Source of the DNA: Candidatus Marinacidobacterales bacterium
GTDB taxonomy: Bacteria > Acidobacteriota > Vicinamibacteria > Marinacidobacterales > DATDRI01
Direction of reading: 5' to 3'
DNA: 64,000 bases
NCBI GenBank assembly: GCA_965219415.1
Contig: CBDCNP010000002.1
Span: forward strand, 3,552,001 to 3,616,000
Positions 4,097-28,292 of this stretch are shown here, one piece after another. The notes under the pieces were generated by a model that was not told the DNA's origin, ran no database searches, and saw only the letters and a program-made list of their open reading frames with translations. The first letter of the stretch is position 1. Each line of letters begins with the position of its first letter. The translations under genes were made by a program, and so were the position numbers.

Positions 4097-5000
4097 CTAT
4101 CCGCCACCTGGAACGACGAAGGCCTCGCTTGCGGCACCCATGGTCGCCACAACAGGCTCCTTGCTGCCCACATCATCAACCTCTGGTCGTGCGAACTGCA
4201 CATCTAGGACGCGAACACGATCGCCTACTCCGAATCCTGGCGCTTCGACCTTTGTGCGTAAGAGAAGTGGCTCGCCTGCTGGCACTGACTTGGAGACCTC
4301 AACATGCGCATCCCAACTCCTAGGGCCGTGTCGCGACTCCACAACAACTTGCGCGTCTCCAAAAACGTCGTGTTCGTCGGCCTCTGCTACTAGCAATCTC
4401 TGGGTCGACGGTCGCCAATACGCCTCGCACAGGTGACGCACACTGCAGTACCGGCACTTCTCAGGGCCAGGTCGAGCTTCAGGCGGCGTTACGCTCGCCG
4501 ATGCCCTCGCCGCGCGACCTCGCGTTGCGAGTTCGCGGGCTAACGATTCAAGTTCTGGTTTCTCCGGAACACTTACTGACACGTCCTTATTCCCATATGT
4601 CAGGACGAGCTTTGTAGCGCGCCGCCTAGTTGGGTTTCGCTCAGGGTCACGCCACCACAACAGGGCGTAGACGCGGAGTTGAAACGCATGGTCATCACTC
4701 GGCTGGCCTGTCTTGAAATCACGTATCTCGCAATGCTCCTCACTAAGGCTGATCAGATCCGCGATTCCGAACCATCCGAGTTCTGGATCTCGCAGAGTGA
4801 CTTCTGCGTACGACCCGGTCTCGAGTGGCCGGCGTGTCGATATCTCCGGACGCGAACGAGAATCAGCCACTGTTTCCTTGGGCTGGAGTTGTAACCTCGA
4901 CAGTTGGCTCTGGACCCGAGTTCTGATCTCCGGAATGGAAGCCTCAAGGCGGCCTCGGGCCGCTTCCAGGACATTTGCAGCCCGAGGATTGCTCTCAAAG
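4097..5000 (-). pseudogene. PD-(D/E)XK (RecB/Cas4-like) nuclease, N-terminus removed at an IS6 end
   Basis: GIADL...IRDFKTG...QLRVYA motifs and a CRYCSVRHLC cysteine cluster; the IS6 TIR GGTACTGTCAAGTTG starts at 5001. Confidence 0.75.
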
Positions 5001-5177
5001 GGTACTGTCAAGTTGACGAAAAGCTAGCTGACCGACCCCGTCCTGTCCGAAAACGCGAACGGACCCCGTCCTGTGTCAAAACTCGGCCTTTTTGAAATAG
5101 ACCATAAATCAGCAGCTTAGTTGTGATCCGCAAAAAAGAAGATCGCGTACCGCTGGATCGACTTTTTGCGGAGCACA
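5001..5177. repeat. Stack of termini: IS6 end, D end, B end and a 56-bp family E MITE (TGTGATCCGCAAAA...TTTTTGCGGAGCACA, 5122-5177)
   Basis: Direct match to repeats elsewhere; the E MITE also occurs at 37303-37397 and 42186-42241. Confidence 0.8.
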
Positions 5178-5342
5178 GCCATTTCTGCCCCAGCCGTCGC
5201 GGCGGCGGCACAGGCGAAGGGCTCGATCGTTCTTATTGACGGTCCTCGCTTGGCCACATTGATGGTAGAGCACGGCGTGGGTGTCAGCATCAAAACACTC
5301 GAGGTGCCACAGATCGACAGCGACTACTTTGAAAACGACTAG
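5178..5342 (+). pseudogene. mrr: Mrr restriction endonuclease C-terminal fragment
   Basis: Hand translation SIVLIDGPRLATLMVEHGVGVSIKTLEVPQIDSDYFEND* matches the typical Mrr C-terminus; absent from the ORF track. Confidence 0.75.
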
Positions 5343-11778: not shown

Positions 11779-12177
11779 GGGATGTGTCCCGAGGTCCGTG
11801 GAAAAAGAACGGCGCCCTCCACTCCGTCGTCAGAGTATCATATCAGGCGGTAACCTCCGCGTGTTCGAGAGCCTCGCTCAGACGTTGGTAGCCGTCGATG
11901 CGTCGTAGTTGAATCTGGCCAGAGGCGATAAGCCCAAACAGCAAAGCGACCGCGGACTCCTCGCTGGAGAACGACGCTTGGGTTTTCGTCCGGCGTCGAA
12001 ACTCGCGGTTGAGATTCTCCAGAGCATTGGTCGTTCGAATCGATTTCCACATGGCACGAGGGAATTCGTAGAAGGTCAGCAGCTGATTACCGGCCTCCTC
12101 TGGGCTTCGGACGACGGCCGGCGCGAGAGGCGTCCACTTGGCGACGAGCTCGTCATAGGCTTTGCGAGCATCGATCC
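11779..12177 (-). mobile_element. IS256-family transposase 3' fragment with right end
   Basis: LLTFYEFP...IRTTNALENLNREFRRRTK motif; GGGATGTG terminus at 11779. Confidence 0.8.
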
Positions 12178-12461
12178 CGTCCTGTGCCAAAACTCGGCCC
12201 TTTAGAAATAGACCACAAATCAGCAGCTTAGAAGCCCTTGGAATCCGCGCAGAATCCAGGGTATTTCGCGCCGCAGGGCTGACTTCCGACCCATGGGCTG
12301 GCGGATGAATAAATAGAAGGCACAGGCGTCAAGGGCGGCGAAGCCGGCGCGCGCAGCGCGCTTTACCCTTGACGCCCCCGAGCACTCTGGTACGATCCCT
12401 GGGGCGATAGGGGACATCCTGCCGCCGGGCGTTGCGTTAACGTCCAACCTCGCTGTCATCT

Positions 12462-12808
12462 TCACGCTGAACCAATACAGGGGTTGACGATACTAGCGAT
12501 CTCATCAAGGGCTTGCTTACCCAGACGCTTGCCGATCTCGGCCAGAGACCGCCGTTCGCCGTCGGTCAGGCGCAAGCAACCCTGGATCTGATTTCGAAGA
12601 ACTCGATTCTCGGCCACAAGATACTCGGTGCGCAGGAGCAACTCCTCATCCACGGATCCTGAGATGTAGGCTAGCATGGTCTTCCAGTCCATCGCGACTC
12701 ATTCCGCTGAACTGGAATACGTATCCGACCGCGATGGCCGATTCAAGCGGCCTTTGGGAAGCTGCAAACTGCTGCCCCCCTGGGCCTTCGAGTATTTTGA
12801 CCAAACGG
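12462..12808 (-). mobile_element. 5' fragment of an rve-type (MDWKTMLAY) IS with its left end (family C)
   Basis: MDWKTMLAYISGSVDEELLLRTEYLVAENRVLR; end CGTTTGGTCAAAATACTCG. Confidence 0.75.
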
Positions 12809-12893
12809 GCGAAACAGTTATGCTTGACAACGAGCTGTCATCCACCTGGAGCCAAATTAGGGAAACGTCCTCCGCGCGAACCCGAGAAGATGA

Positions 12894-15428
12894 ATGGTTG
12901 ACTTCAAAAAGCGTCTAGGCAAGAAGAAACTCTCTCGCCCCATAAAACCACTCGAGATTTACTCGGCTCTCGATCGGGAGAGTGACAAAGGACCTCTGCG
13001 TCCGATACAAGAGGCCATTCTTGAGAAATGGTTCGCGCATCATCGAGAGGACCAGGACGTTATCCTCAAACTAAATACTGGCCAAGGAAAAACTCTGATC
13101 GGTATGATCATGCTGCAATCAAGACTCAACGAGTTGCAAGAGCCGGTCCTTTATTTGTGTCCCAACAAATTCCTAGCGGCCCACACTTGCACCCAGGCGC
13201 GCCAGTTCGGGATCAAGGTTTGCTCGACGGAAGGCGCGCTTCCTTCGGAGTTCTATAACGCTGACGCTATTCTCGTCACGCACGTCCAAAAACTATTTAA
13301 CGGAAAGACACAATTTGGACTTCGCGCGAACTCCACGTCTGTGTCGACACTCCTTGTAGACGACGCACATACTTGCATCGATTCCATTCGGGCTGCGACG
13401 AAGATAACGCTTGCGTCAAAGGAACCGGCTTACGGCATGATTCGTGACCTTTTTGACAAGTCGCTCAAGGAACAGGGAATGGGTACCTACGCGGACCTAC
13501 GTGCCGGGGAAGCTGGTACGACCCTCCTGGTGCCGTATTGGGATTGGGACGACAAGCATGAAGACGTTGTGGCGATTCTTTCGAAGTATAAGGACACGGA
13601 CACGCTCAGGTTTGTTTGGCCCTTGCTTCGGGACCGAATCGCCGACTGTCAGTGCGTGATTTCTGGCACGGGCCTAGAGATCGAGCCATACCTGGCCCCG
13701 CTCGAAGACTTCGGAACTTTCACCAGTGCAAAGCATCGAGTCTACATGTCAGCGACCATCGCAGACGACGCGTTTCTCGTGAAGGGACTCGGGGTCGAAC
13801 CCGCCGTGATCCGCAATCCTTTAATCTACGAGCATGAAAAATGGTCGGGCGAGAAGATGGTTCTGATACCGTCGTTGATAGGTGAGAAGCTAACCCGCGC
13901 GGAGATCGTACGCGTATTCGCAAGAGAGAGGAAAAGACGCGCGTGGGGCGCTGTGGCCCTTACGCGCAGCTTCAAGAATTCCAAAGACTGGGAGCAGTAC
14001 GGTGCATTGGTCGCGACAAGTCAGACAATCGAATCCGAAATACAAAAACTTAGAGACGGAAAGTGCGAGCGCACGTTGGTCATCGCGAACCGATACGACG
14101 GGATCGACTTACCAGATCAAGCGTGTCGTCTTCTAATCATAGACTCGCGCCCTTGGACAGAAAATTTGATCGACCAATACGTTGAGAGCGTCCGACCAGA
14201 AAGCGACCTCGTCGCGACGAGACTTGCTCGCACGATCGAGCAAGGTCTAGGTCGAAGCGTTAGAGGCGAGAAGGATTATTGCGTCTTCATAATTACAGGG
14301 CCGGATTTGGTCCGCTATATCACGCGGAAGGATATGACGCGTTTTCTGTCGAGCCAGACGCGCGCACAAATCCAAATTGGCCTAGATGTCGCAGAATACG
14401 CCAAAGAGGAGGCGGGCGACGAAGTCTCGATGCAGGAACTTATTGACCTTGCCGGCCAATGCTTAAAAAGAGGCGAAGATTGGAAAGCCTTCTATGTCGA
14501 GCGAATGGACGCAGTGCAATCTGAAAGCGACGGGAACGAACTCCTGGCTCAGCTTTCCATGGAGTTGGATGCAGAAAAGAGCTTCGTCTGCGGCGACGTG
14601 GACAAGGCTACAGCAACGGTCCAATCCTACCTCGACACGTCCGAACTGGATGAGGCCGAGACCGGCTGGTACTTTCAGCATATGGCCCGATACCAACGCG
14701 CGCTCAGCGAGATCGAGGCTGACAAGCTCCAGCAGACCGCACACGCGCGTAACGGGTATCTTCTCAAACCCAGAATAGGAATGACGTTCAAACAACTCAA
14801 CGTAGTAAGCCTAAAAAGGACTTCCAACATTATCGATTGGGTCGGCCAATTTACCACGTACGCAGATTTGCTCGTCGCGCTAACGGACGTGCTCGATGGA
14901 CTTTCATTTGGCGTGCGTGCAGACCGCTTCGAACGCGCATGGGACAACGTAGGTGAAATATTGGGCTTTGAACATGATCGACCGGACAAGATCTGGAAAG
15001 AAGGACCAGACAATCTGTGGGGCCTGGCACAAAATTCTTTCCTGGTGGTCGAATGCAAGAACCAGGTAGAACTAACCAGGTCCTACATAAATAAGCACGA
15101 GACGGCGCAATTGAATGGTTCGATAGCGTGGTTTCAGCAGAAGTACAAAGGTGCGCACTGTTTCAGCGTGATGATTATTCCTACTCACAAAGTTCAAAAA
15201 GGCGCCTACTTTGTCAGCGATGACGTTGGAATAATGAATTCGAACCTTCTTTCCAAATTCAAGAAACGAATCATCGCTTTCATTTCTGAGTTTAGAAACT
15301 TCAACCTCCAAGAGCTCTCAGAGGAAAAGGTACAGTCGTTGATAGACACGCACAAGCTCACACCGGAGTCGGTCGCACGCGATTTTGTCAAGCGGCCAGT
15401 TTACGCTGACAGCACATCAGCCCAATAG
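12894..15428 (+). CDS. Hna-like SF2 (DinG/XPD-like) helicase with C-terminal PD-(D/E)XK nuclease; single-gene anti-phage candidate
   Basis: LNTGQGKT, VDDAH, MSAT, YDGIDLP and EQGLGRSVR motifs; C-terminal GPDNLW...VECKN; 844 aa. Confidence 0.7.
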   Translation: MVDFKKRLGKKKLSRPIKPLEIYSALDRESDKGPLRPIQEAILEKWFAHHREDQDVILKLNTGQGKTLIGMIMLQSRLNELQEPVLYLCPNKFLAAHTCTQARQFGIKVCSTEGALPSEFYNADAILVTHVQKLFNGKTQFGLRANSTSVSTLLVDDAHTCIDSIRAATKITLASKEPAYGMIRDLFDKSLKEQGMGTYADLRAGEAGTTLLVPYWDWDDKHEDVVAILSKYKDTDTLRFVWPLLRDRIADCQCVISGTGLEIEPYLAPLEDFGTFTSAKHRVYMSATIADDAFLVKGLGVEPAVIRNPLIYEHEKWSGEKMVLIPSLIGEKLTRAEIVRVFARERKRRAWGAVALTRSFKNSKDWEQYGALVATSQTIESEIQKLRDGKCERTLVIANRYDGIDLPDQACRLLIIDSRPWTENLIDQYVESVRPESDLVATRLARTIEQGLGRSVRGEKDYCVFIITGPDLVRYITRKDMTRFLSSQTRAQIQIGLDVAEYAKEEAGDEVSMQELIDLAGQCLKRGEDWKAFYVERMDAVQSESDGNELLAQLSMELDAEKSFVCGDVDKATATVQSYLDTSELDEAETGWYFQHMARYQRALSEIEADKLQQTAHARNGYLLKPRIGMTFKQLNVVSLKRTSNIIDWVGQFTTYADLLVALTDVLDGLSFGVRADRFERAWDNVGEILGFEHDRPDKIWKEGPDNLWGLAQNSFLVVECKNQVELTRSYINKHETAQLNGSIAWFQQKYKGAHCFSVMIIPTHKVQKGAYFVSDDVGIMNSNLLSKFKKRIIAFISEFRNFNLQELSEEKVQSLIDTHKLTPESVARDFVKRPVYADSTSAQ

Positions 15429-15670
15429 GAGCCTTCACAAGAACACTGACTCCGTTGTGTCCGAAAACGCCAACGGAGTTGAAAGCTAGAATCCTAGAGT
15501 CGTTCTCGAAATTTGAGGAGACCAGCCGACGCGGCACTGGCTCCGCGATAGGCGATCCCGAGCAGACCTCTCCTCCAAATCATCCGTTACGTCCAGCTTG
15601 CGCGCCCGAACTCCTATGCGGTGTCGCGGTGGTAATAACTGAGCAAGCCCGTCCTGTGCCAAAACTCGGC

Positions 15671-15992
15671 TGTGCATCGTCAAAACTGCTCCGCCCACGA
15701 AATCAAGGACTTACGCTCCGCTTGAATTCCGGGCCGAAGACGGCGAAACTCCGCCGCTATGCTCAACGTTGTTGTCTTCCTCGTCTCACTTGGCGTCCGT
15801 GCCATTCGGGCGATGTGTCGGCGCCGCGCCGACCTGGTGTTGGAGAACGTCGCTTTGCGGCAGCAAGTGACGGCGCTGAAGAAAGAGCGCCCACGCCCAC
15901 CGCTCGACGACACGGAACGGGCTTTCTGGGTTGCCCTTCGAGGTTCGTGGCCCGTGTGGGCGAGCCGCCTGCTCATCGTCCACGCGGACACC
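15671..15992 (+). mobile_element. 5' fragment of the rve/IS481-like element
   Basis: Inverted copy of the left part of 16273-17558. Confidence 0.85.
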
Positions 15993-16266
15993 CGTGAGGT
16001 CAAAATACTCATGCGGCTTCCCGATGGTAGAAACGGAGCAACCCGCCAAGCCGTTCACGGGAGCGCACCTTGCGCTCGGACTGAGGTAACTGTTCGCTGG
16101 CTGGGAACAGCAGCAGATTCTCCTTGCCTTGATGATTCCTCTCATGATGATGGTAGACGACGTACTCCCTAAGCGCATGACGGAGCGACTTCTCGCCGAA
16201 CAGGATGAGCTTCGAGAGACATTCCTCTTTGACGGACTTCACCCAGCGCTCCGCGAACGAGTTCAA
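15992..16266 (-). mobile_element. 3' fragment and right end of the MDWK-type rve IS
   Basis: AERWVKSVKEECLSKLILFGE...HHERNHQG...LGGLLRFYHREAA*; end CGTGAGGTCAAAATA. Confidence 0.8.
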
Positions 16267-16272
16267 ATCCGG

Positions 16273-17558
16273 TGTCCATCATCATTATTGATCCGGGACT
16301 GGACTCTAGGGCCCGGACCGCCCTCGAGCACATGCTGGAGAGCGTGGTCAGCGCGCGAGGGAAGGTGCTGAGGACGAACTTCTCGGCGACCAGCCGAGTA
16401 ACGCGAGCGACCAAGCTGACTCAGGCTGCCTCTCGCCACTCGTATCGATGGTGCAGTCCACCGACTCGCGGCAGTGCGACTACTTTCGCCGTAGGAGACG
16501 GTCGGTGCGTGACCGTTCTCAAGCTCGGTGTGTCCTTGTTCAGCCCCAAGTGGCAACGGTCCTCATGATAGTAGCTGATGTAAGCTCGCACGAGCCGGAT
16601 GAGATGACATGCACCGAGAACCACGACGTGCTCAAGGAGCTCGCGACGGCAGCTGCCGACCCACCGCTCCGCGGTTCCGTTTTGCCATGGGCTGCGAAAC
16701 GAAGTGCGAACGGGTTTTGTGCCCGTTGCCTTGATGAACTCGATGACCGCAGCGTTAAAGATGAAGTCGCGATCGAAGATGAGATATCTCGGAGCGGTGT
16801 CGTAGGGAAACGCCTCACGCAGTTGCTGAATAACCCAAGCAGACGTCGGGTGGAACGTGGCGTTGAAGTGAACGATGTGCCGACGACCGTGCTCGATGAC
16901 GAAGAAGCCGTACAGCAGCCGGAGCGACGCGGTGGGCACGGTGAACAGATCCACGGCGGCGATATCGTCTTTATGGTTGCGCAAGAAAGCCATCCATCGT
17001 TTCAGCTGGTCGGGCTCCGCGGGACGCCGCGGCAGGTATCGCGACACCGTGCTCTCGGAGATGATGAAACCGAGCTTGGTGAGCTCAGCATGGATGCGTG
17101 GCGCCCCCCAGCCGTCTTGCGCCATCGTGCGGACGACGCGACGAATCTCGGCATCAATCCGAGGCCGACCGGGATGGCGGCGCTGCGAGATCTTTGCCCA
17201 GTACCGTCGGAATCGGTCGCGATGCCAACGGGCTACGGTGTCCGCGTGGACGATGAGCAGGCGGCTCGCCCACACGGGCCACGAACCTCGAAGGGCAACC
17301 CAGAAAGCCCGTTCCGTGTCGTCGAGCGGTGGGCGTGGGCGCTCTTTCTTCAGCGCCGTCACTTGCTGCCGCAAAGCGACGTTCTCCAACACCAGGTCGG
17401 CGCGGCGCCGACACATCGCCCGAATGGCACGGACGCCAAGTGAGACGAGGAAGACAACAACGTTGAGCATAGCGGCGGAGTTTCGCCGTCTTCGGCCCGG
17501 AATTCAAGCGGAGCGTAAGTCCTTGATTTCGTGGGCGGAGCAGTTTTGACGATGCACA
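16273..17558 (-). mobile_element. Complete rve integrase-core IS (IS481/IS3-like, TGT..ACA ends), transposase 16421-17470
   Basis: DLFT, IFDRD and QNGTAERW DDE motifs; ends TGTGCATCGTCAAAA and TGTCCATCATCATTA; near-identical copies elsewhere. Confidence 0.85.
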
Positions 17559-17856
17559 GGCTATTGTTCTACAACGTCGACAAAGGCTAGCCGACCAACG
17601 GAATTCAGGGGGAGGATTTGGTCATCATCCGAGCGCTCCTTAAAGCGACGAGAAAGCTGGAGCGTCGGCTTCGCCGAGGTGACTTCGATTGTCGGACGCT
17701 GGTGTTCCTAAGACATGGTGCGAGGAGATCAATCGGGCACAGTCGGACGTGTCCTATGATTTCGTCTTTGTGGACGAAGAGAGCTTCAACAGATACAGCC
17801 CAAAATCATTTGCCGACCTTGCTACCAATTTCCGTCAGTACAAGGAGGGCTGAATC

Positions 17857-19359
17857 ATGACCGCGCCGGTCACCGCCTCAATGCTTTACGATTTGGTTTC
17901 TTGTCCGCATCGCGTGACCATGGACCTTTTCGCCGACCAGGCGCAACGCGATGAGCCAAACCCGTTTGTTCAATTGCTTTGGGAGAAGGGTAACATCTAT
18001 GAGAAAGAGGTTATTGAGAGGCTGGAAATTCCCCTTACCGATCTCTCAATATACGCAGGTGATGAAAAGGAACGGCTGACTTTTGAGGCTATGCATGGCG
18101 GCGAACCGCTAATCTACAGTGGACGTATGCAGGCCGAAGGCCTTCTTGGAGACCCGGACCTGCTGCGCCAAGAGGGTGACGGGTATGTCGCTGGAGATAT
18201 CAAGTCAGGCGCAGGGGAGGAAGGCTCGGGTGACCTGTCGAAACCCAAGAAGCACTACGCGGTGCAACTCGGGCTCTACACAGACATCCTGGAACGTAAG
18301 GGCCTTTCTGCCGGGAAACGTGGCTTTATCTGGGATATTGATGGCCAAGAAATCATCTATGACTTTATAAAACCATACGGGAAACGGAATCCACGCACGC
18401 TCTGGGAGGATTATCAGGATTGCCTCGCCGAGGCCCAGGCGATAGTCGGCAAGAACACGGAGACGCTTGCCGCCTATAGCGGGGTTTGCAAGCTCTGTCA
18501 TTGGTACAGCGCTTGTATCTCACGCCTAACCGATGCGAACGATCTGACGCTGATTCCTGAGTTGGGCCGGTCGAAGCGTGACGTGATGATGGAACGTATC
18601 GCAACGATACGGGACCTGGCCGAGGCTTACCCCGCAGAATTTGTCACGGGCAAGAAAACGATCTTCCCCGGCATAGGTCTCGCGACTCTAGAGAAGCTGC
18701 ACGCCCGAGCGAAGCTGATTACGGCGGGGAAGAAGGCCAAGCCCTATCTCCGCGAACCGGTAACGCTGCCGGTCGCCGATCTGGAACTGTACTTCGACAT
18801 CGAAGTCGATCCCATGCGCAACATCTGTTACCTGCACGGTTTTGTCGAACGGCGGGGCGGCGACAACGACACAGAACGGTTTATCACTTTCTTCGCCGAG
18901 CAAACAACCGCAGAGGCTGAGAAGCAGGCTTTTGCCGAGGCTTGGCGCTACATGCAGGAAAGCCAGCCCTGCGTGATCTACTACTACTCGAAGTACGAGC
19001 GAACCATCTATCGAAAGCTACGTGAGAAATATCCGGACGTTTGCAAGGAGGACGAACTGGAGGCGCTATTCGACCCGGTACGGGCCGTGGACCTCTATTC
19101 TAATGTGGTGCTGAAGGCCACAGAATGGCCAACACGAGACTTCTCAATCAAAACACTGGCTAACTATCTCGGCTTTGCGTGGCGCGACACGCATCCCTCG
19201 GGGGCGGCTTCGATCGAATGGTTCCATAGGTGGGTAGAAACGGGTGACCCTACGATTCGCCAGCGCATTCTTGATTATAACGAAGACGATTGTCGTGCGA
19301 TGCGCGTTCTGCGGGATGCTCTTGACACCTTGATCGTGATGCCGGAGGGGCCCGCATGA
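17857..19359 (+). CDS. TM0106-family RecB-like nuclease with C-terminal RNase H-like (YprB-type) exonuclease domain
   Basis: SCPHR, GDPDLL, GDIKSG, QLGLY, CKLCHWYSAC, FDIE, FSIK and YNEDDCRA motifs. Confidence 0.85.
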   Translation: MTAPVTASMLYDLVSCPHRVTMDLFADQAQRDEPNPFVQLLWEKGNIYEKEVIERLEIPLTDLSIYAGDEKERLTFEAMHGGEPLIYSGRMQAEGLLGDPDLLRQEGDGYVAGDIKSGAGEEGSGDLSKPKKHYAVQLGLYTDILERKGLSAGKRGFIWDIDGQEIIYDFIKPYGKRNPRTLWEDYQDCLAEAQAIVGKNTETLAAYSGVCKLCHWYSACISRLTDANDLTLIPELGRSKRDVMMERIATIRDLAEAYPAEFVTGKKTIFPGIGLATLEKLHARAKLITAGKKAKPYLREPVTLPVADLELYFDIEVDPMRNICYLHGFVERRGGDNDTERFITFFAEQTTAEAEKQAFAEAWRYMQESQPCVIYYYSKYERTIYRKLREKYPDVCKEDELEALFDPVRAVDLYSNVVLKATEWPTRDFSIKTLANYLGFAWRDTHPSGAASIEWFHRWVETGDPTIRQRILDYNEDDCRAMRVLRDALDTLIVMPEGPA

Positions 19360-20588
19360 ACAATACACAGCAAACGCATGACGCTCAACAAATACTCTCC
19401 AGCCTGAGGGACCATCTTGCGCGGCATGACAAGCCTATCGCTTTCTTCTTAGGTGCTGGCACATCTTGTGCGATCAGAGTGGCGGTGCCCGATGACAAGG
19501 ATAAGACGCAGCCGCTCATACCTGCCGTTGCCGAATTGACCAAGATATGCCGGGAAAAGGCGCGTGGCTTAGGCAAAAAGTATGAAGAGACATGGCAGTT
19601 GATCGAGGAGCATTACAAAGAAATGAAGCAGGACCCTAATGTTGAGAATATTCTTTCGCGCTTGCGCATGATGCTCAACGCCGTGGGCAACACCGATACG
19701 TTGTCGGGCCTAAGAAAGGATGAAATCGAAAAACTTGAAGAATCTGTGCGCAAGACGATAGCCGAGATTGTAACCCCAAATTTAAGCAAAATTCCTAATG
19801 AGTATCCACACCGCAAATTCGCCCGTTGGCTGATCAAAACATCGCGCCAGAATCCTGTTGAGATATTTACGGTGAATTATGATGTGCTTATCGAGCATGC
19901 CCTTGAGGCCGAACGCATCCCGACGTTCGACGGCTTTGTCGGAAGCTTCCAACCCTTCTTTCACCCGGATAGCCTGCGCCGATTGGAGTTCGCACCTGGT
20001 GCAAATTGGACCAGACTCTGGAAAATGCATGGTTCGGTCACGTGGCGGCGCATCGAGCAAGATGCTCGCGTCCGTGTTGTCCGGGGCGATCCCGATGCGG
20101 CGGGCGAAATGATCTACCCGTCATTTCAGAAATACGATGAATCCCGACAGCAGCCCTATTCTGCCTTTACAGACCGTCTGAGCCGATTCCTTGAGCAGGA
20201 TGATGCGCTTTTGATAGCGGCAGGTTTTGGTTTCGGAGATGAACACATAAACAATCTCATATTCGGGGCTCTGGAGAACAGGCCAAGAACCCACGTATAC
20301 GCTCTTCAGTTTGAAGAATTATCTGAGGAGAACGATCTCATCAGGCGGGCTTACCAGCGACCTAACATGATCGTGATGGGTCCAGATACCGGCATCATAG
20401 GCGCGCGGCGGGCAGCTTGGGCACCAGTGGAATGCCCCGCTTTCATGGAAGTAGCATTTGAGCTGAGAGCTGACAATTCTTCTGAGGATGGAGAGGGCGC
20501 CGAAAATGAGGAAGCTAAGTTAGGCCTGATGAAAATCGGAGACTTTAGGTCCTTCTGCGACTTCCTCGAATCTATGACGGCGGTCTAG
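19356..20588 (+). CDS. SIR2-family NADase of a SIR2-HerA system
   Basis: FFLGAGTS, IFTVNYD, WKMHGS and GFGFGDEHIN motifs; ATGA overlap with TM0106. Confidence 0.85.
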   Translation: MNNTQQTHDAQQILSSLRDHLARHDKPIAFFLGAGTSCAIRVAVPDDKDKTQPLIPAVAELTKICREKARGLGKKYEETWQLIEEHYKEMKQDPNVENILSRLRMMLNAVGNTDTLSGLRKDEIEKLEESVRKTIAEIVTPNLSKIPNEYPHRKFARWLIKTSRQNPVEIFTVNYDVLIEHALEAERIPTFDGFVGSFQPFFHPDSLRRLEFAPGANWTRLWKMHGSVTWRRIEQDARVRVVRGDPDAAGEMIYPSFQKYDESRQQPYSAFTDRLSRFLEQDDALLIAAGFGFGDEHINNLIFGALENRPRTHVYALQFEELSEENDLIRRAYQRPNMIVMGPDTGIIGARRAAWAPVECPAFMEVAFELRADNSSEDGEGAENEEAKLGLMKIGDFRSFCDFLESMTAV

Positions 20589-20594
20589 CTCATC

Positions 20595-21733
20595 ATGCCG
20601 CTCGCTGATCCAACATATATTGGCCAGGTCGCTTCCGTTACAGGAGCTATAGTCCGCGTACGGCTTCGCGAGGATATGCCATCAACGCTGGTCATGATCG
20701 GCGGGGAGTCCTACCGTGTCGGCCAGATCGGGGGGTTCTTCCGCGTTCCCCTTGGCTATGCCAACCTTTACGCCGTCTGCACTCAGATCGGCGCGGATGC
20801 AGCCCCTCCCAGCAGTGCCGAGGTAATGTCCGAGGCAGCGCTGGAAACGGACTCACAAGTTCGTCTCTCGGGCTTTCGCTGGATGACGATTGTGTTATTC
20901 GGCGAAGGACTTGGTACCGAGTTTGAGAGAGGTGTCGGTCAATACCCGACAGTCGGAGATGAAGTACACCTTGTTACCAATGACGATCTTAAAATTATCT
21001 ATGGATGGGCAAAGGGCAAGAAGGGCACAATTTCTGTCGGACAAATAGCTGCCACGTCTGGCATATCAGCCGACGTAAGTGTGGCAGGACTCGTTAGCCG
21101 ACACAGCGCCATCGTTGGTTCCACAGGCGCGGGCAAGTCAAACCTCGTCACCGTTCTGATGGAAACGGTTTCCGACGGAACCCTGCCGAACGCCCGAGCA
21201 ATTGTCATTGATCTGCATGGCGAATACGGGACTGCACTTGGCGCCAAGGCGAGAGTGTTTCGTACAAGGCCTGACGAGGAAGCTGGAGAAAGACATTTGC
21301 GGGTGCCGTTTTGGGCGCTTCCATTTTCCGAGCTCCAGCAGCTTACGTTAGGGGGACTTCAGCCCAACCATGAAGCCGCTATCCGGGATCAAGTCCTAGA
21401 TATGAAAGTAGCGGCGGCAGAGCACCTGACCATCTCTCCGCCACCGGAAACACTCACTGCGGATTCTCCAGTCCCGTTCAGCATCAAGCAGCTATGGTAC
21501 AAGCTTGATCAATCTGAACGGGTCACCTTCCACACTACAGGAAACCAGCAGACTGACCAAGAGGCCTACCCTCCAGATGAAGTCGGAGACGCGAGCAAAT
21601 TGAGGCCCGACCGATATCCGGCAGCGAGTCCCTATAACCAGGAGCCGTACAAGAATCAGCGAAAGCGAAACATTGAACGCCACCTTGATCTCATGCGGAG
21701 CAGATTAAAGGATAGTCGGTTCTCGTTCCTTCT
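20595..21733 (+). pseudogene. herA: HerA/FtsK-like ATPase, C-terminally truncated by IS-derived DNA
   Basis: HAS-barrel-like N-terminus, HSAIVGSTGAGKS and IDLHGEY; no Walker B; after about 21733 the frame reads into antisense transposase. Confidence 0.8.
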
Positions 21734-22194
21734 CGCGAAGCGGATAATCAGCTGTTCGATCTTTTCGTCGATTCGTGGTCGCCCCGGATACGTCCGGTTC
21801 TTGGAACCGTCGAACTTCCTGGCGATGAGCTTGCGGTGCCACCCGAGAATCGTATCGGGCCTGACGATACTCGCTACCTCTTCGAGCGCGCGCTTGCCGA
21901 GCTGTTTTCCGATCTCCGCCAAGGTTCTCCGCTCACCATCGGTCAGGCGCAAACGGCCTTGCAGCTGATCTCGAAGAATACGATTCTCGGTAACGAGGTA
22001 CTCGTTGCGCAGGAGCAGTTCTCGGTCGACCGATCCCGTGATGTACGCCAGCATTGTCTTCCAGTCCATTGTGTCTCCCCGGAGAACTAGAGTAAGTACC
22101 TGACCACGACCTGTGATTCAACCGGTCTAACAGACCGAGGCCAAGCCCTCTCAAACTGGCCTACGGGAGCGCGTTTGAGTTTATTGACCAGACG
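21733..22194 (-). mobile_element. 5' fragment of the MDWK-type rve IS
   Basis: MDWKTMLAYITGSVDRELLLRNEYL...PGRPRID; left end at 22194. Confidence 0.8.
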
Positions 22195-22202
22195 ACAACT
22201 GA

Positions 22203-22400
22203 ATTTGATTAGTCTCCGGTCTGCCGGGACCATGCCGGCATAATTTCGTCGTTTGTTCGCGCTCTCGTCTCTGCCTTCAAGGCTCCTCGCGAGCTGGCTC
22301 TCGAGAATGTCGCTCTTCGCCAGCAGCTCGCCGTGCTCCGCCGTTCGGTGAAACGGCTGCGGCTCTCGAATGTCGACCGCGAGTTTTGGGTGCTGTTGCG
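22203..22400 (+). mobile_element. 5' fragment of the F-type rve IS transposase
   Basis: ELALENVALRQQLAVLRRSVKRLRLSNVDREFWV; related fragment at 26156-26305. Confidence 0.65.
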
Positions 22401-22703
22401 GGTGCTTCCGCCATGAAAGTGTTGGTGAGATAACGCTAAGACTTTACGCTGCATTAAATTACAACCAAAATAGCGCTCACGACCTTCGCCGCGCGCTTGC
22501 CAGTGGAACAAGTTTCGGCACAGGACGCCATCGTATGCAATAATGATGTCGGCGTGCACACGAAGATGTTGCTGAACGTCAGGCACCGCCTGGTCAGCGC
22601 AGTCTGCATCGCCGAAAGAACTGTGTCCCTTCGAAATCAGGCTCAACCTCTAGCACGTGAGCGGGTTACGCGGCGGCTACCAACACTTGATTTCAGAAGC
22701 ACC
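22401..22703. mobile_element. Family A MITE (composite)
   Basis: GGTGCTT...AAGCACC ends. Confidence 0.75.
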
Positions 22704-22730
22704 CGTGTCGAGGTGGAGCGGGTTTAGCTT

Positions 22731-23330
22731 GTGAAACTCCCAAGCCATTCTCCATTACTCGTCGCGCTCTCCCAGTCTGTCGCCGGGCGCGAGAAGTTTC
22801 CCGGCCGTATCGGTGGCGAAGGCCACATCGGCCAAGCGGCACCACCCTTCGAGCTAAAAGCGTGGTTGAACGCGGATCCGCTGGAGCCGGCCGACTTGAA
22901 GGGAAATGTACTACTCGTCCGTTGGTGGACGGACACTTGTCCCTTTTGCTCCACGACGGCACCCGTGCTGCGGGAGCTCAACCGCAAGTACCGAGGTCGG
23001 GGCCTCCGGGTCATCGGCATCTTTCACCCCAAGCCGCCCGGGGATAGGAGCGTCGAACGGCTGCGGCGGGCGACCGAGCGCTTCGGCTTCACCTTCCCGG
23101 TGGCCCTCGACGCGGATTGGATAGCGCTCCACCGCTGGTGGCTCGACCACGAGGTACAGGCGTGGACCTCCGTTTCCTTCCTCGTCGACAAGCAGGGTCT
23201 CGTCCGCTATGTCCACCCCGGCGGCGAGTACCATCTGGGAGAAGCTGGACTCCACTGGCGGAACCACGAAAGCTGCCATCGGGAATACCGCGAGATAGAA
23301 GACACCATTCTCAAACTCCTCGACAACTAA
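22731..23330 (+). CDS. TlpA/thioredoxin-like redoxin; true start uncertain
   Basis: LLVRWWTDTCPFC CxxC motif; TSVSFLVDKQG. Confidence 0.75.
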   Translation: MKLPSHSPLLVALSQSVAGREKFPGRIGGEGHIGQAAPPFELKAWLNADPLEPADLKGNVLLVRWWTDTCPFCSTTAPVLRELNRKYRGRGLRVIGIFHPKPPGDRSVERLRRATERFGFTFPVALDADWIALHRWWLDHEVQAWTSVSFLVDKQGLVRYVHPGGEYHLGEAGLHWRNHESCHREYREIEDTILKLLDN

Positions 23331-23460
23331 TCCCCACGAGAAGCAACGCCGCCAGCGCGAAAAAAGACGAGGAATTCTACGGTAGAGTTGGCGGGTTCGG
23401 GCACTCAACACCTCGATTTTGGCTCGGGAAAGGTTGTGCCTTCTATTTATTCATCCGCGT

Positions 23461-23609
23461 GATGGAGATCACGGATATACTCAGCCAGAACGTGCCCCTA
23501 GAGGACGTGGAGTATCTGGCCGGACACTCCAACCCCTCGGGCCACACAGATCTATGACCGGCGTAGACAGCACGTCACTCGCAACATCGTGGAGCGTGTC
23601 TCGATATGA
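23461..23609 (+). pseudogene. Tyrosine recombinase C-terminal fragment
   Basis: VPLEDVEYLAGHSNP / TQIYDRR..VTRNIVERVSI with a frameshift. Confidence 0.65.
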
Positions 23610-23808
23610 AAGAAGGACCAGGGAAGAGAGACATCCTTTCGAGGTGTCCCTTCCATAAACTCGAGCTGTATGAGATTGGCGAACTTCCTGTAACCGGAAT
23701 GCTTTGGTCGTCTTCATGTAGGACGTTTTAAGAGCCGGCGTCGGCTCTACTCCGGGGTAGAGGTGTAAGCTGGTGCGAAGTCCGGCAGCCGTTCCGAGCG
23801 GATCGGAC

Positions 23809-23915
23809 TCAAGCAGCGCGTCGAGTGTAATAATGATGGAGACCACCGACCTTTGGAATGACTCTCACTTTGCCCATCGCCGGTGACTCTACCCGGCGAG
23901 GCTCAGGCGCGTTGT
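23809..23915 (-). mobile_element. 3' fragment of another rve IS
   Basis: Hand translation DNAPEPRRVESPAMGKVRVIPKVGGLHHYYTRRAA*. Confidence 0.7.
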
Positions 23916-24000
23916 CGTCTGGTCAAAATATTCGAACGCCCATCGGGTCAGCAGTTTGCACCTTTCCAACGGGAAGCCGCATGAGTATTTTGACCTCACG
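23916..24000 (+). mobile_element. 85-bp family C MITE
   Basis: CGTCTGGTCAAAATA...TATTTTGACCTCACG; copies at 25509-25593 and 39189-39273. Confidence 0.85.
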
Positions 24001-24051
24001 CCGACAGAACCCGTCCTTTACAGCAACCGACCCAGTTTCAGGAGCTGAATC

Positions 24052-24927
24052 ATGAGTAACAAGTACGTAAGGCCGGAACACATGTCGCTAAAGGGCCATC
24101 CCGACTTTAACGAAAAATGGGTACAAAACCTCATTGCGAACGATCCTTCCATCCTACGGCTTGGAGAATTAGCGCTGAGGGACATAGAGCGCATGCAGCC
24201 GCGCGCCGGCCGTCTCGATCTTCTGCTTCAAGATACCGATACGAAACGAAGATACGAAGTGGAACTGCAACTCGGGTCGACGGATGAGGCCCATATCATC
24301 CGTACAATCGAGTATTGGGATATCGAGAAGAAGCTTTACCCGCAATATGAGCACTGCGCCGTCCTCATCGCAGAGGACATTACAAGCCGATTCTTGAATG
24401 TCGTCTCCCTTTTCAATGGGGCAATTCCCCTCATCGCTATTCAGATGCAGGCTCTCAAGGTCGGTGATAACCTGACGCTTGTTTTCACCAAGGTCATGGA
24501 CGAACTTTCGAGGGGACTTATTGACGAGGATGAGGATGCTGAATCAGCACCGACCGATCGTGCATACTGGGAGAAACGCGCCACCAAAGCAACGGTCGAT
24601 TGGGCCGATCAGATACTGGAGATTCTTCGTAGCTTTGATCCAACACTGAATCTGAAGTACAACAAATTCTATATCGGCGTGGAGAAGGACGGTCAACCCT
24701 ACAACTTTGTAACGTTCCGGCCACAGAAGAAAGCGCTCAGTTTCAACTTGAAGCTACCCCAGACCGACGATCTTGATACCAAGATCGACGAAGCTGGTCT
24801 CGACACGCTTGAGTACGACACACGCTGGGGCTTCTACCGCCTTCGTCTGACCATGAACGACATTAAGACGAAGTCGGAGATTCTGGAACAGTTGTCAAAA
24901 CTTGCTCATGCTCGACGAGCAAGCTAG
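24052..24927 (+). CDS. Putative restriction-endonuclease-fold (NucS-like) protein with DUF5655-like C-terminus
   Basis: FNEKWVQ...GRLDLLL...YEVELQ...IEYW; C-terminal LKYNKFYIG. Confidence 0.6.
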   Translation: MSNKYVRPEHMSLKGHPDFNEKWVQNLIANDPSILRLGELALRDIERMQPRAGRLDLLLQDTDTKRRYEVELQLGSTDEAHIIRTIEYWDIEKKLYPQYEHCAVLIAEDITSRFLNVVSLFNGAIPLIAIQMQALKVGDNLTLVFTKVMDELSRGLIDEDEDAESAPTDRAYWEKRATKATVDWADQILEILRSFDPTLNLKYNKFYIGVEKDGQPYNFVTFRPQKKALSFNLKLPQTDDLDTKIDEAGLDTLEYDTRWGFYRLRLTMNDIKTKSEILEQLSKLAHARRAS

Positions 24928-25023
24928 AGATCGGATAGCCTCCACTTTGATCGACTTTGAATCTTATCTGGTCAACTTTTAGTTTGAGACCGTATTGGGA
25001 CTGAGCGTTCGCAACTGTGAACC

Positions 25024-25508
25024 TTCGCGGTAGGGACCGCCCTTACGGACGGCCCCCCGCACAGATCCCAGCGAGCGCTGCTAACGCACTGGGCTCCTAC
25101 CTCAGGTCATGACGCGCAGTCGCTGTTCGGGATACGGGTGCAGTGTTCGAATCGGTGGAAACCAGCGGTCGGCCAGGCGGTTCATGCGCTCCGCGGTCAT
25201 CCGGTGTCGTTGGCTCCTCTGCCGCAGCGTGCGGAGCCAGAGACGGTACACCTGATACTTGAAAGCGCCGAGCTTCCGCTGGTTACGAGGCACCGCATAA
25301 TAGTTGAAATGCCCCTGCATGACCGACCTTAACCAGTGCCCTACCTCGGGGACAGGATGGTGCAGCCGTCGCTTCAGCTCGATTTTGATCTCGCGAAGTT
25401 TCGACTGCAGCCGTTTCCGCATCGTCTGCCGAAGCACGATGAATTTCCCATTCCTTGTTGTGTTGCACGTATGTGTGAAACCAAGAAAATCGAAAGACTC
25501 GGGCTTCC
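25024..25508 (-). mobile_element. Group II intron 3' fragment: RT/maturase C-terminus plus domains V and VI
   Basis: GHFNYYAVPRN...LRQRSQR...LHPYP; domain V GAGCCCAGTGCGTTAGCAGCGCTCGCTGGGATCTGTGCGGGGGG; end CCCTACCGCGA. Confidence 0.85.
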
Positions 25509-25593
25509 CGTCTGGTCAAAATATTCGAACGCCCATCGGGTCAGCAGTTTGCACCTTTCCAACGAGAAGCCGCATGAGTATTTTGACCTCACG

Positions 25594-26155
25594 CGGAGAT
25601 TTTTCACGGCGTTGCCGATCGGGTCGGAGACTCGCTGGGGCTCGCCCGGCTTGCAGCGGCGACGGATGCGGACGTGATCGTTCTTGCCGGTGTGTACTTC
25701 ATGGCAGAAACGGCCAACCTTTTGAACCCGAACAAGACTGTCCTCATTCCAGATGCGGAGGCCGGTTGTTCTCTTGCCGCCTCCATCACTGGCGCCGACG
25801 TGCGGCTTCTGCGAGAACGCTACCCGGACGTTCCGGTTGTTACCTACGTAAACACATCGGCCGAAGTGAAGGCGGAGAGCGACATCTGCTGCACCTCGTC
25901 GAACGCTGTCAAGGTCGTCGAGTCACTCGGTACGGAACGCGTCATCTTTCTTCCTGACGAGTACCTCGGGCGATGGGTCAGCCAGCAGACGAACGTCGAC
26001 GTCATCCTGTGGAAAGGCCATTGCGAGGTGCACGAGCGGTTTACGGCGGAAGAACTGCTTGGCGCACGCGAGCAATAGGGCAAGATTACGATTCTGGCGC
26101 ACCCGGAATGTCCGCCCGATGTCCTCGCGGAAGCCGATTTCGTCGGCTCGACGGT
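25594..26155 (+). pseudogene. nadA: Quinolinate synthase internal fragment with a nonsense codon
   Basis: [39 protein letters not shown] and AHPEC motifs; TAG at 26076; both ends cut at IS tips. Confidence 0.85.
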
Positions 26156-26504
26156 TGTGCCTTCTACTTATCCATCCGCGCGCACCGAACTTGATTAGTC
26201 TCCAGTCTGCCGGCATCATGCCTGCATGATTTCATCGTTTGTTCGCGCTCTCATCTCTGCCTTCAAGGCTCGTCCCGAGCTAGCTCTCGAGAGTGTCGCT
26301 CTTCGTGCGTCTGGAGATTCAGGGTTTAGTCCGGCATCTGCTAGTAGCCGCTCCGGCTCCATTCGCTTTTTCAGACACGACGGGCTCTGGAATGACCCGG
26401 TATAGTGTGGGCAGCTCTCGGCCAGTGGTCTCGGTGAGTTTCGGCTTGGGCGAGGACTCCCCATACCTACCCTTGCCCGTTTTTCCACGAAATCGAGGTG
26501 CGTA

Positions 26505-28292
26505 ATGGAGATTCGGAACCTCAACCAGCTTCTCTCGAACGCGGCGAAGAAGTACGACAAGCCGGACGCCCTCCTGTACAAGAAGAAGGGGGAGTGGCGG
26601 CGGCTCTCCTCGCGCGAGCTCATCGAAAAGGCAGGCAACTTGGCACTCGGGCTGAACGGCCTGGGTATCGGCCGGGGCGACAAGGTCACTCTCCTCTCGG
26701 AGAACCGCCACGAGTGGTTCATTATCGATGCCTCCCTCCAGATCCTGGGCGCGGTCAACGTGCCGATCTACGCGACGCTCCCGCCTCCTCAGATCACCTA
26801 TATCGTCTCGAGCTCCGAGTCGAAGGTCGTTATCGCCTCGACCGCCGACCAGCAAAAGAAGATCGCCGCCATCCGTTTGGACCTCCCTTCGGTCGGACAC
26901 TACATCACTATCGATCCGCCGACGGACGGCTACCAGGCGCTCACCCTTGACGAGGTGATGAAACAGGGCCAAGAGAGCCGGAGGGCAAAACCCGATCTCG
27001 TCGGCGAGCTATCGGATGCGGTCGACTCCGACGATCTCGCCAGCATCATCTATACGTCGGGAACGACCGGAGATCCGAAGGGCGTCATGCTCACCCACCG
27101 CAACCTGCTCTCGAACGTTGCGGCCAGCCAGAAGGCGCTCCCAGTCGAGGACACGGACGTGGCGCTCTCGGTGCTTCCCTATAGCCATGTCTTCGAGCGC
27201 ATGGTGGCGCATTACCTGTACGCCAACGGGGGTGCCACCGTGGCGCTCGCGGAGGGCCAGGAGAAACTCCTGGAGAACCTCGGTGAGATCCGCCCTACCA
27301 TCATGACGATGGTGCCTCGGTTCTACGAGAAGGTCTACGCCGGTGTGATGGAGAAAGTCGCTGCGGGGAGCGCGCTGAAGCAGAAGACCTTTCACTGGGC
27401 GGTCGCGATCGGACGCGAGCACGGGAAGTACCGGCAACGCGGCGAGCCGGCCCCGGCGCTCCTGAACGTCAAATACGCGCTCGCCTCCAGGCTCGCTTTC
27501 GCAAAGCTGCACGCCCGCGTCGGCGGCCGGCTGCGGTTCTTCATCTCGGGCGCGGCTCCGCTCGCGAGAGAGATCGCAGAGTTCTTCTGGGCGGCGGGGC
27601 TGCAGATCCTGGAGGGCTATGGGCTGACGGAAACCTCGCCGGTCATCTCCGTCAACCGTCCCGATGCCTTCAAGTTCGGGACGGTAGGACAGCCCGTCGA
27701 GGGAGTCGAGGTCAGGATCGCGAAGGATGGAGAGATCCTGGTCCGTGGGCCCAATGTCATGAAAGGCTACTACAAGAACGAAGCAGCCACTCGAGAGGCC
27801 ATTGACGAGGACGACTTCTTCCATACCGGTGACGTAGGGGTTCTCGACTCAGACGGGTTTCTTGCCATCACCGACCGCAAGAAGGACCTCATCGTTACCG
27901 CGGGAGGCAAGAACATCGCTCCCCAGCCCATCGAGGGCCGCGTCAAGACGAACGCTTACATTGCGGAGTTCGTCCTGGTGGGCAACAAGCGGAAGTTCCC
28001 GGCAGCGATCGTGGTGCCTGATTTCGAGAAGCTCGGTGCCTGGTGCAAGGAGCAATCCATCGACGCCTCCGACCGGAACTCGATGACCGGTCATCCCGAT
28101 GTGATCGCTTTCATGGAGAGCCAAGTACAGTCGATGACCTCGCACCTCGCGCAGTTCGAGAAGATCAAGAAGATCACCCTGATAGCAACGGAATTCACTC
28201 TGGAGGGCGGGGAGCTGACGCCGACGCTCAAAGTGAAACGAAAGGTTATCGAGGCCCGTTACAAGGATGTCATCGATCGGATGTACGAGTGA
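26505..28292 (+). CDS. Long-chain fatty acid-CoA ligase (second, diverged copy)
   Basis: IYTSGTTGDPKG, EGYGLTE, FHTGD and LTPTLK motifs. Confidence 0.9.
   Translation: MEIRNLNQLLSNAAKKYDKPDALLYKKKGEWRRLSSRELIEKAGNLALGLNGLGIGRGDKVTLLSENRHEWFIIDASLQILGAVNVPIYATLPPPQITYIVSSSESKVVIASTADQQKKIAAIRLDLPSVGHYITIDPPTDGYQALTLDEVMKQGQESRRAKPDLVGELSDAVDSDDLASIIYTSGTTGDPKGVMLTHRNLLSNVAASQKALPVEDTDVALSVLPYSHVFERMVAHYLYANGGATVALAEGQEKLLENLGEIRPTIMTMVPRFYEKVYAGVMEKVAAGSALKQKTFHWAVAIGREHGKYRQRGEPAPALLNVKYALASRLAFAKLHARVGGRLRFFISGAAPLAREIAEFFWAAGLQILEGYGLTETSPVISVNRPDAFKFGTVGQPVEGVEVRIAKDGEILVRGPNVMKGYYKNEAATREAIDEDDFFHTGDVGVLDSDGFLAITDRKKDLIVTAGGKNIAPQPIEGRVKTNAYIAEFVLVGNKRKFPAAIVVPDFEKLGAWCKEQSIDASDRNSMTGHPDVIAFMESQVQSMTSHLAQFEKIKKITLIATEFTLEGGELTPTLKVKRKVIEARYKDVIDRMYE

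Follow-up and report, generated by a model that had tools for sequence, protein, structure and literature searches.

A truncated copy of a three-gene cassette

The window analysed here, a stretch of 64,000 nucleotides (nt) from the genome of an acidobacterial Candidatus Marinacidobacterales bacterium (contig CBDCNP010000002.1, positions 3,552,001 to 3,616,000), carries three consecutive forward-strand genes: one for a TM0106-family dual nuclease (window positions 17857-19359; 500 amino acids, aa), sir2 for a SIR2-like NADase (NAD, nicotinamide adenine dinucleotide) of the SIR2-HerA type (19356-20588; 410 aa) and a 5' fragment of herA (20595-21730). The first two genes are intact. An original prediction, made from the letters of the window, had announced an ATGA overlap and a 6-bp gap between the genes, and both were read directly at the junctions: the TGA stop codon of TM0106 (19357-19359) overlaps the sir2 ATG (19356-19358), and the TAG stop codon of sir2 is followed by 6 nt and then by the herA ATG at 20595. 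Ahead of TM0106 lies a conserved leader (17755-17856, forward strand) in which an AAGGAGG ribosome-binding site precedes the ATG by 7-8 nt, and DNA homology to the best relative (locus L003) comprises this leader and all three genes (85.6% identity over 3976 bp, window 17755-21730). The GC content of the cassette block is 51-56%, versus ~60% in the flanks. A promoter scan of 17400-22300 detected no sigma-70-like promoter, and a search of 12000-28000 against Rfam returned no family. A small open reading frame (ORF) at 17618-17860, which overlaps TM0106 by 4 bp, was considered as a fourth gene and dropped, since DNA homology of the relatives starts only at 17755 and no upstream gene is common to the loci.

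Profile and fold comparisons uphold the dual-nuclease architecture with four cysteines that had been proposed for the TM0106 protein, which its sequence places in TIGR03491 (226.2 bits against a cut-off of 97.45, residues 6-487 aligning with profile positions 2-460 of 462). Pfam domains PF12705 (PDDEXK_1, residues 95-220) and PF13482 (RNase_H_2, residues 311-489) mark an N-terminal Cas4-like PD-(D/E)XK domain with the four cysteines, a helical linker and a C-terminal RNase H-like exonuclease of the PolB-exo/DEDD type. The cysteines (C16, C211, C214 and C220), the PD-(D/E)XK residues (D101, D114, K116, Q137 and Y141) and the DEDD-type residues (D314, E316, D412 and D478, with Y474 also listed) are invariant in 17 relatives, and across 101 sequences the nuclease and iron-sulphur (Fe-S) residues are nearly invariant, whatever the gene context. 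Foldseek searches with an AlphaFold model (mean predicted local distance difference test score 78.8, weak at residues 48-81) matched the N-terminal half to Cas4 (7mi4, 4r5q, 4ic1, 8d3l), MGME1, RecE and Dna2, and the C-terminal half to MrfB and to the proofreading exonuclease domains of family-B and T7 polymerases. The TM0106 profile had no match among PDB sequences at E up to 1, and a Pfam search at E up to 5 gave no NurA match, returning only RNase_H_2, PDDEXK_1 and a weak DUF2779. The PADLOC model of Cas4 is matched only weakly (E 3.2e-4), and the gene was not found in a cas1/cas2 module, its neighbours being sir2, herA and insertion sequence (IS) genes, with no search aimed at CRISPR arrays.

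The SIR2 protein matches Pfam PF13289 and, with 473 bits over residues 6-408, the PADLOC model PDLC04093; its closest solved relative in a profile search is the SIR2 of Paenibacillus sp. 453MF (8W9L, E 2e-67). Its GAGTS motif (residues 33-37) and residues N174, D176 and H225 do not vary among 15 relatives, the window copy included, and we take the conserved Asn and His to be catalytic, as they are in other SIR2 effectors. HerA follows sir2 in 77 of 79 related genome loci (tblastn), and the intact HerA of L003, which is 88% identical to the window fragment, matches 8WIV over residues 6-609 (E 1.3e-144). The sir2-herA pair of the window belongs to the known SIR2-HerA kind, Paenibacillus type (8W9L for SIR2, 8WIV for HerA and 8WLD for the complex), which it resembles in gene order, in its short intergenic gap and in its PADLOC model matches, save that its HerA is incomplete. 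It also differs from the Paenibacillus system, as presented in the relevant passages of PMC11472057, by the extra, translationally coupled dual-nuclease gene upstream.

The herA fragment encodes residues 1 to ~379-381 of ~622, and its ORF continues to 21968 (457 aa) by reading through an IS fragment. It matches the PADLOC model PDLC04105 with 244 bits over profile positions 7-353 of 576 only, and relatives, which are 609-625 aa long when intact, only over residues 1-381 (tblastn). The Walker A motif (GSTGAGKS) is kept and the C-terminal ~240 aa, including Walker B, are gone; a full HerA ATPase with HAS-barrel, RecA-like core and both Walker motifs is thus encoded in relatives such as L003 and not in the window. 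Nor does the missing half of herA lie elsewhere in the 8.05-Mb genome, where the other matches are other ATPases (28-34% identity). Profile coverage, the end of the tblastn match and the genome-wide search bear out the earlier suspicion that this copy lost its function together with the Walker B half of herA: the window copy of the triad is broken and cannot be expected to deplete NAD+ or to protect against phage. The end coordinate given for the cassette in that prediction, 21733, also proved to be the true end of herA sequence; homology ends at 21730.

Adjoining the herA break are the last 470 bp of a ~1.73-kb IS (21725-22194, reverse strand) with the N-terminus of its transposase (ORF 22069-21656). 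Four full-length copies of this element (1725-1733 bp) are present at other sites of the genome, and their ends are 99-100% identical to the fragment. A deletion is indicated because herA and the IS are both cut at one junction; it probably ended inside the IS copy and took the last ~240 HerA residues, the order of events being a reconstruction. Locus L020 of a related metagenome-assembled genome carries a remnant (6883-7849) that matches window 19240-20204 at 97.7% DNA identity, comprises only the last 58 TM0106 codons and the first 286 sir2 codons and has the same IS fragment 4 kb away, and it represents a second, more advanced decay stage of the same cassette. The window itself adds an example of a defence system eroded through IS activity.

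Recurrence of the triad and of its parts

A genome scan with a SIR2 alignment, restricted to one genome per species, yielded 79 loci; these, like the metagenome loci below, are a similarity-ranked sample. The SIR2 of 49 of them is related to that of the window (42-98% identity), and 47 of the 49 are informative, having at least 1500 bp of upstream sequence. The original prediction had proposed to check this neighbourhood and conceded that a TM0106 gene rarely found upstream of close sir2-herA homologues would refute it. That outcome did not arise: sir2 is immediately preceded by a full TM0106 gene in 21 of the 47 informative loci and by C-terminal TM0106 remnants in two more (L015 and L020), although near-duplicate loci (L008/L009/L010 and L016/L017) make for fewer independent lineages than 21. 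Most close-type triads keep the ATGA overlap, and 3-17 bp separate sir2 from herA. The hosts belong to Alpha- and Gammaproteobacteria, Acidobacteriota, Binatota, Bacteroidota and Myxococcota, and clustering of the flanking ORFs showed that only the three cassette genes are common to the loci, the flanks being unrelated and no integrase, transposase or repeats being conserved with the cassette.

TM0106 presence is strongly clustered on a tree of SIR2 and HerA, yet not confined to a single clade: we counted 9 changes of presence against a mean of 17.1 in shuffled data, with none of 500 shuffles as low. Over the 21 loci, the pairwise distances between TM0106 proteins correlate with those between SIR2 plus HerA (Mantel r 0.825, none of 5000 permutations as high), indicating that the nuclease and its two neighbours diverged together. 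In the window's own phylum, a TM0106-like gene was found in 8 of 301 genomes and the best other match is 39% identical, a rarity and distance that point to horizontal acquisition of the cassette. Taken as sequence comparisons, these results make a solid case that the three genes form a conserved, horizontally moving cassette, as the earlier view of them as one unit would have it.

The TM0106 family is essentially absent from phages: no match was found among the PHROGs, and a viral contig collection (IMG/VR, 2.9 million contigs) held a single TM0106 locus. This locus (L173, 5001-8882) is a complete TM0106-SIR2-HerA triad on a 42-kb viral-classed contig, which may be a prophage or an island carrying the triad.

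A metagenome scan with the TM0106 alignment gave 492 confirmed loci, the best 80 of which (61-86% identity) were analysed; as 13 end too soon after TM0106, 67 are informative, and SIR2-HerA follows TM0106 in 19 of these. Eleven of the 19 triads are of the window type, at least 5 of them repeating genome loci, while the other 8 represent a second SIR2-HerA lineage (33-43% identity, gaps of 17-230 bp). Among solved structures, those of the Paenibacillus 453MF proteins are nearest to both lineages. The window-type, second-lineage and SIR2-HerA-free contexts are interleaved on the TM0106 tree: the sister of L086 (second lineage), for instance, is L012 (window type), and that of the L026/L094/L096 group is a second-lineage clade. 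When genomes of another class were sampled evenly, 7 of 401 carried this TM0106 subfamily, and 2 of the 7 copies were broken. The link between TM0106 and SIR2-HerA is thus optional in both directions. Of the original interpretation, the cassette stands. To speak of an obligate three-component system would be too strong; the nuclease is better described as an optional add-on module.

No description of the triad was found in the openly available main texts of the Sir2-HerA literature searched, in line with the earlier statement that none was known. The accessible text of PMC10853773, for instance, mentions HerA many times and contains no text on SIR2, Cas4 or RecB.

Motor partners of TM0106 and a look-alike nuclease

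COG2251, to which TM0106 corresponds, is described in the relevant passages of PMC3985635 as PF13482 joined to a DUF83-like PD-(D/E)XK domain, often with tandem AAA domains or helicase fusions, and a 3'-5' exonuclease activity is predicted for it there. The window protein resembles the TM0106/COG2251 (TIGR03491) and DUF2779 families in its full-length match above the cut-off and in its combination of PD-(D/E)XK and PF13482 domains. Unlike the accounts of these families, whose relevant passages (PMC3985635, PMC13621843) give neither a SIR2-HerA link nor a function, it belongs to a subclade (61-90% identity) tied to SIR2-HerA operons.

Inspection of 74 longer TM0106 relatives revealed that every fused form joins the TM0106 module to an NTPase. 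Among close relatives these are SNF2 helicases (19 clusters, 57-66% identity, matching BrxH, DrmD and HmaA models), an AAA+/sigma54-type ATPase (1 cluster) and DUF499 proteins (two clusters, P0263 and P0264, 50% identity); superfamily 1 (SF1) helicases account for ~50 clusters of distant relatives (23-33% identity). Like the Hma and other SNF2-helicase-nuclease defences (HmaA; PMC11232893, in the parts that treat its architecture), such proteins combine a PD-(D/E)XK-superfamily nuclease with a motor ATPase, and the likeness extends to the fusion of TM0106 relatives with HmaA-matching SNF2 and to HmaC/DUF499 genes that adjoin or fuse with TM0106. In HmaA, however, the nuclease is C-terminal and single according to the same parts of that source, whereas TM0106 is N-terminal and double.

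Distant TM0106-like modules (24-25% identity) also occur near SIR2-HerA pairs that lack the cassette nuclease: in L036 (10333-13860, reverse strand) the module is fused to an SF1 helicase (1175 aa, MkoA/MkoC models) and lies convergent to SIR2-HerA, and in L024 (1-2295, reverse strand) it lies nearby on the opposite strand. A further arrangement is found in L115 (838-6530), which carries TM0106 twice in tandem, with a ~350-aa protein encoded behind each copy. Both ~350-aa proteins are of one family, which has no Pfam match and may be another TM0106 partner.

In loci without TM0106, the slot upstream of sir2 can be filled by a second nuclease family. A same-strand DUF2779 gene immediately precedes sir2 in L043 (4-bp overlap), L067 and L076, and a divergent one does so in L030. 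According to PMC3985635, DUF2779 shares the two-nuclease design of TM0106, and the corresponding passages of PMC13621843 present it as a Cas4-like plus DEDDh/y nuclease; its N-terminus matches PADLOC Cas4 (E 5e-6), and it aligns collinearly, if weakly, with TM0106 (hhalign E 0.0016 over 370 columns). That one slot holds two nuclease families of one design suggests that the arrangement is under selection and did not arise by chance. A single alternative upstream partner of the TM0106-less SIR2-HerA pairs emerged only in part, as several kinds were found (DUF2779 in 3-4 loci, an AbiEi-like pair in 3, DUF499/HmaC in 2 and a UvrD-PDDEXK gene in 1), the rest of the upstream genes being unrelated. 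Downstream of herA, no nuclease gene is conserved in these loci. The DUF499/HmaC-like ATPase genes immediately precede SIR2-HerA on the same strand (L039, 3360-6176; L041, 4112-6910), and together with similar genes near TM0106 triads (L007/L034/L099, 1838-4961, reverse strand) and the two DUF499 fusion clusters they hint at a wider network of exchangeable parts. The AbiEi-like pair, seen in three Dehalococcoidia loci (L031, L037 and L051, ~4950-6930), consists of a same-strand AbiEi-like helix-turn-helix gene and a gene for a ~290-aa protein without family assignment.

Possible roles of the nuclease and the defence-island setting

The cited passages of PMC11472057 describe SIR2 rings seated on the HerA hexamer and draw an analogy to NurA-HerA, and those of PMC13434337 report for the E. 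coli type III Sir2-HerA that end-exposed DNA stimulates the ATPase, whereupon ATP falls and the ATP block on the NADase is lifted. Some Sir2-HerA systems have nickase activity and are gated by DNA ends, and how infection is sensed and what purpose the nuclease and nickase activities serve are under debate, according to the same passages of PMC13434337. Considering this background, we lean towards reading the locus as a degraded version of a mobile anti-phage cassette of three genes in which TM0106 is a modular DNA-end nuclease that borrows the HerA motor. The protein would be a DNA-end-processing effector lacking a motor of its own, with a predicted Cas4-like Fe-S PD-(D/E)XK endo/5'-exonuclease activity and a DEDD-type 3'-5' exonuclease activity, and its motor in the triad would be the hexameric translocase HerA, much as archaeal HerA serves NurA. 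The cassette resembles the HerA-NurA resection machine in that a gene for a hexameric translocase accompanies one for a nuclease of RNase H-like fold acting on DNA ends. Unlike NurA, TM0106 is of the RNase_H_2/PolB-exo type, with structural matches to polymerase proofreading domains and MrfB, it has the additional Cas4-like predicted Fe-S nuclease domain, and its binding to HerA is only proposed. Two modes of action can be envisaged: TM0106 may degrade phage DNA directly, in addition to the depletion of NAD+, or it may create or enlarge end-exposed DNA that would stimulate the HerA ATPase and thereby license the SIR2 NADase. A functional link is favoured by the occurrence of the same TM0106 clade ahead of a second SIR2-HerA lineage and by DUF2779 in the same slot. 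A recurrent SIR2-HerA variant with a dedicated DNA-end nuclease would offer a handle on the proposed logic by which DNA ends license the NADase, and it would for the first time place the large TM0106/COG2251 family and the similar DUF2779 family in a functional context, both of which appear as motor-seeking nuclease modules of defence islands.

A broader version, which we put forward tentatively and think rather doubtful, is that TM0106 and DUF2779 are unrecognised, widespread motor-dependent anti-phage effectors that dock on the HerA ring like NurA. SIR2-HerA would then be a two-armed machine instead of a suicide system that acts solely by NAD depletion: the nuclease would resect phage DNA ends, which in turn would drive the HerA ATPase, drain ATP and fire the SIR2 NADase, and the same nuclease would plug into SNF2, SF1, AAA+ and DUF499 motors in other defence systems. 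A 1:1 complex prediction of SIR2 with TM0106, run without controls, scored 0.00, a value that counts neither for nor against a complex, and a 1:1 pair is a poor proxy for a dodecamer-hexamer assembly.

Several observations weigh against a dedicated partnership of TM0106 with HerA. On the SIR2-HerA side, sir2 and herA are intact without TM0106 in 24 of the 47 related loci, TM0106 adjoins a distant SIR2 (31-36% identity) in none of 30 loci (25 of them informative), and the 7-9 changes of TM0106 presence on the SIR2-HerA tree imply that the link was often made and broken. On the TM0106 side, 48 of the 67 informative metagenome loci among the best 80 of 492 have neither SIR2 nor HerA and share no common neighbour, the TM0106 tree requires at least 5 changes of the close-type label, SIR2-HerA adjoins TM0106 in 1 of 6 genomes of the even sample minus the centre genome (the gene standing alone in the other 5), and none of the 74 longer relatives is fused to SIR2 or HerA. 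Moreover, the Paenibacillus SIR2-HerA is a complete two-gene defence in the account of PMC11472057, and no experimental paper on TM0106, TIGR03491, PF13482 or COG2251 was found in the literature searched.

These points lend themselves to a different explanation, in which one transcription unit combines two defence modules that each work by themselves. TM0106 would be a self-sufficient single-gene nuclease defence or another accessory nuclease that travels with SIR2-HerA in defence islands and has no mechanistic coupling to it. Because each partner is common without the other, this explanation stays credible, although we hold it to be distinctly the less probable one. It draws on the solitary state of most close TM0106 genes in both samples, on SIR2-HerA working as a pair in the literature cited above, on the typical island genes that neighbour TM0106 (MmeI-like restriction-modification, DUF499/HmaC, DUF5131 and SbcC-like) and on the window, which is itself a defence island. 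Chance stacking leaves unexplained, however, the conserved 4-bp overlap, the co-divergence across phyla, the repeated pairing with two SIR2-HerA lineages and the second, similarly designed nuclease family upstream of sir2, and since the fused relatives always carry a motor, TM0106 is unlikely to be indifferent to an adjacent HerA.

It is improbable, in our view, that TM0106 acts instead as a safeguard or regulator that trims or repairs nicks and ends made in self-DNA by a HerA-associated nickase, or that senses phage DNA ends upstream of SIR2-HerA activation. The nickase activity and DNA-end gating of some Sir2-HerA systems (PMC13434337, in the passages cited) would suit such a role, as would the position of TM0106, which is first in the operon and translationally coupled to sir2; a safeguard should resist loss, yet TM0106 has repeatedly been lost with sir2 and herA left intact, and its fusions to defence-type SNF2 and SF1 helicases resemble effector arrangements. 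Less probable still is a role in mobility or maintenance of the cassette (e.g. end processing during transfer or integration) with no part in defence: Cas4-like nucleases do occur in mobile elements, and the cassette is clearly mobile, with unrelated flanks and one copy on a viral-classed contig, but no integrase, transposase or repeats accompany it, TM0106 is nearly missing from viral sequences (no PHROG match, 1 locus in 2.9 million viral contigs) and SIR2-HerA cassettes move equally well without it.

The island character of the window rests on an 844-aa DEAD/ResIII helicase (12894-15428, forward strand) whose match to the PADLOC candidate single-gene defence PDC-S28 is nearly full-length (978 bits), which places the triad in a defence island that IS copies have interrupted. 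Directly upstream of the cassette lies an IS transposase gene with an integrase core (rve_3, PF13683; 16421-17470, reverse strand), and 15759-16172 (forward strand) is a second partial copy of its N-terminus. Further IS fragments around the locus lie on the reverse strand at 12462-12692, 21656-22069 and 22209-22646, and besides its four full copies (99-100% identity) the 8-Mb genome contains dozens of 70-78% relatives of the 1.73-kb IS, which suggests heavy recent IS activity. A 291-aa ORF at 24052-24927 (forward strand) belongs to no Pfam family and weakly matches PDC-S18, a PADLOC candidate (E 5e-6). Finally, a 134-aa ORF at 25674-26078 (forward strand) matches only positions 48-181 of 295 of NadA (quinolinate synthase, NAD biosynthesis) and looks like a fragment; its location near an NADase system may be coincidence.

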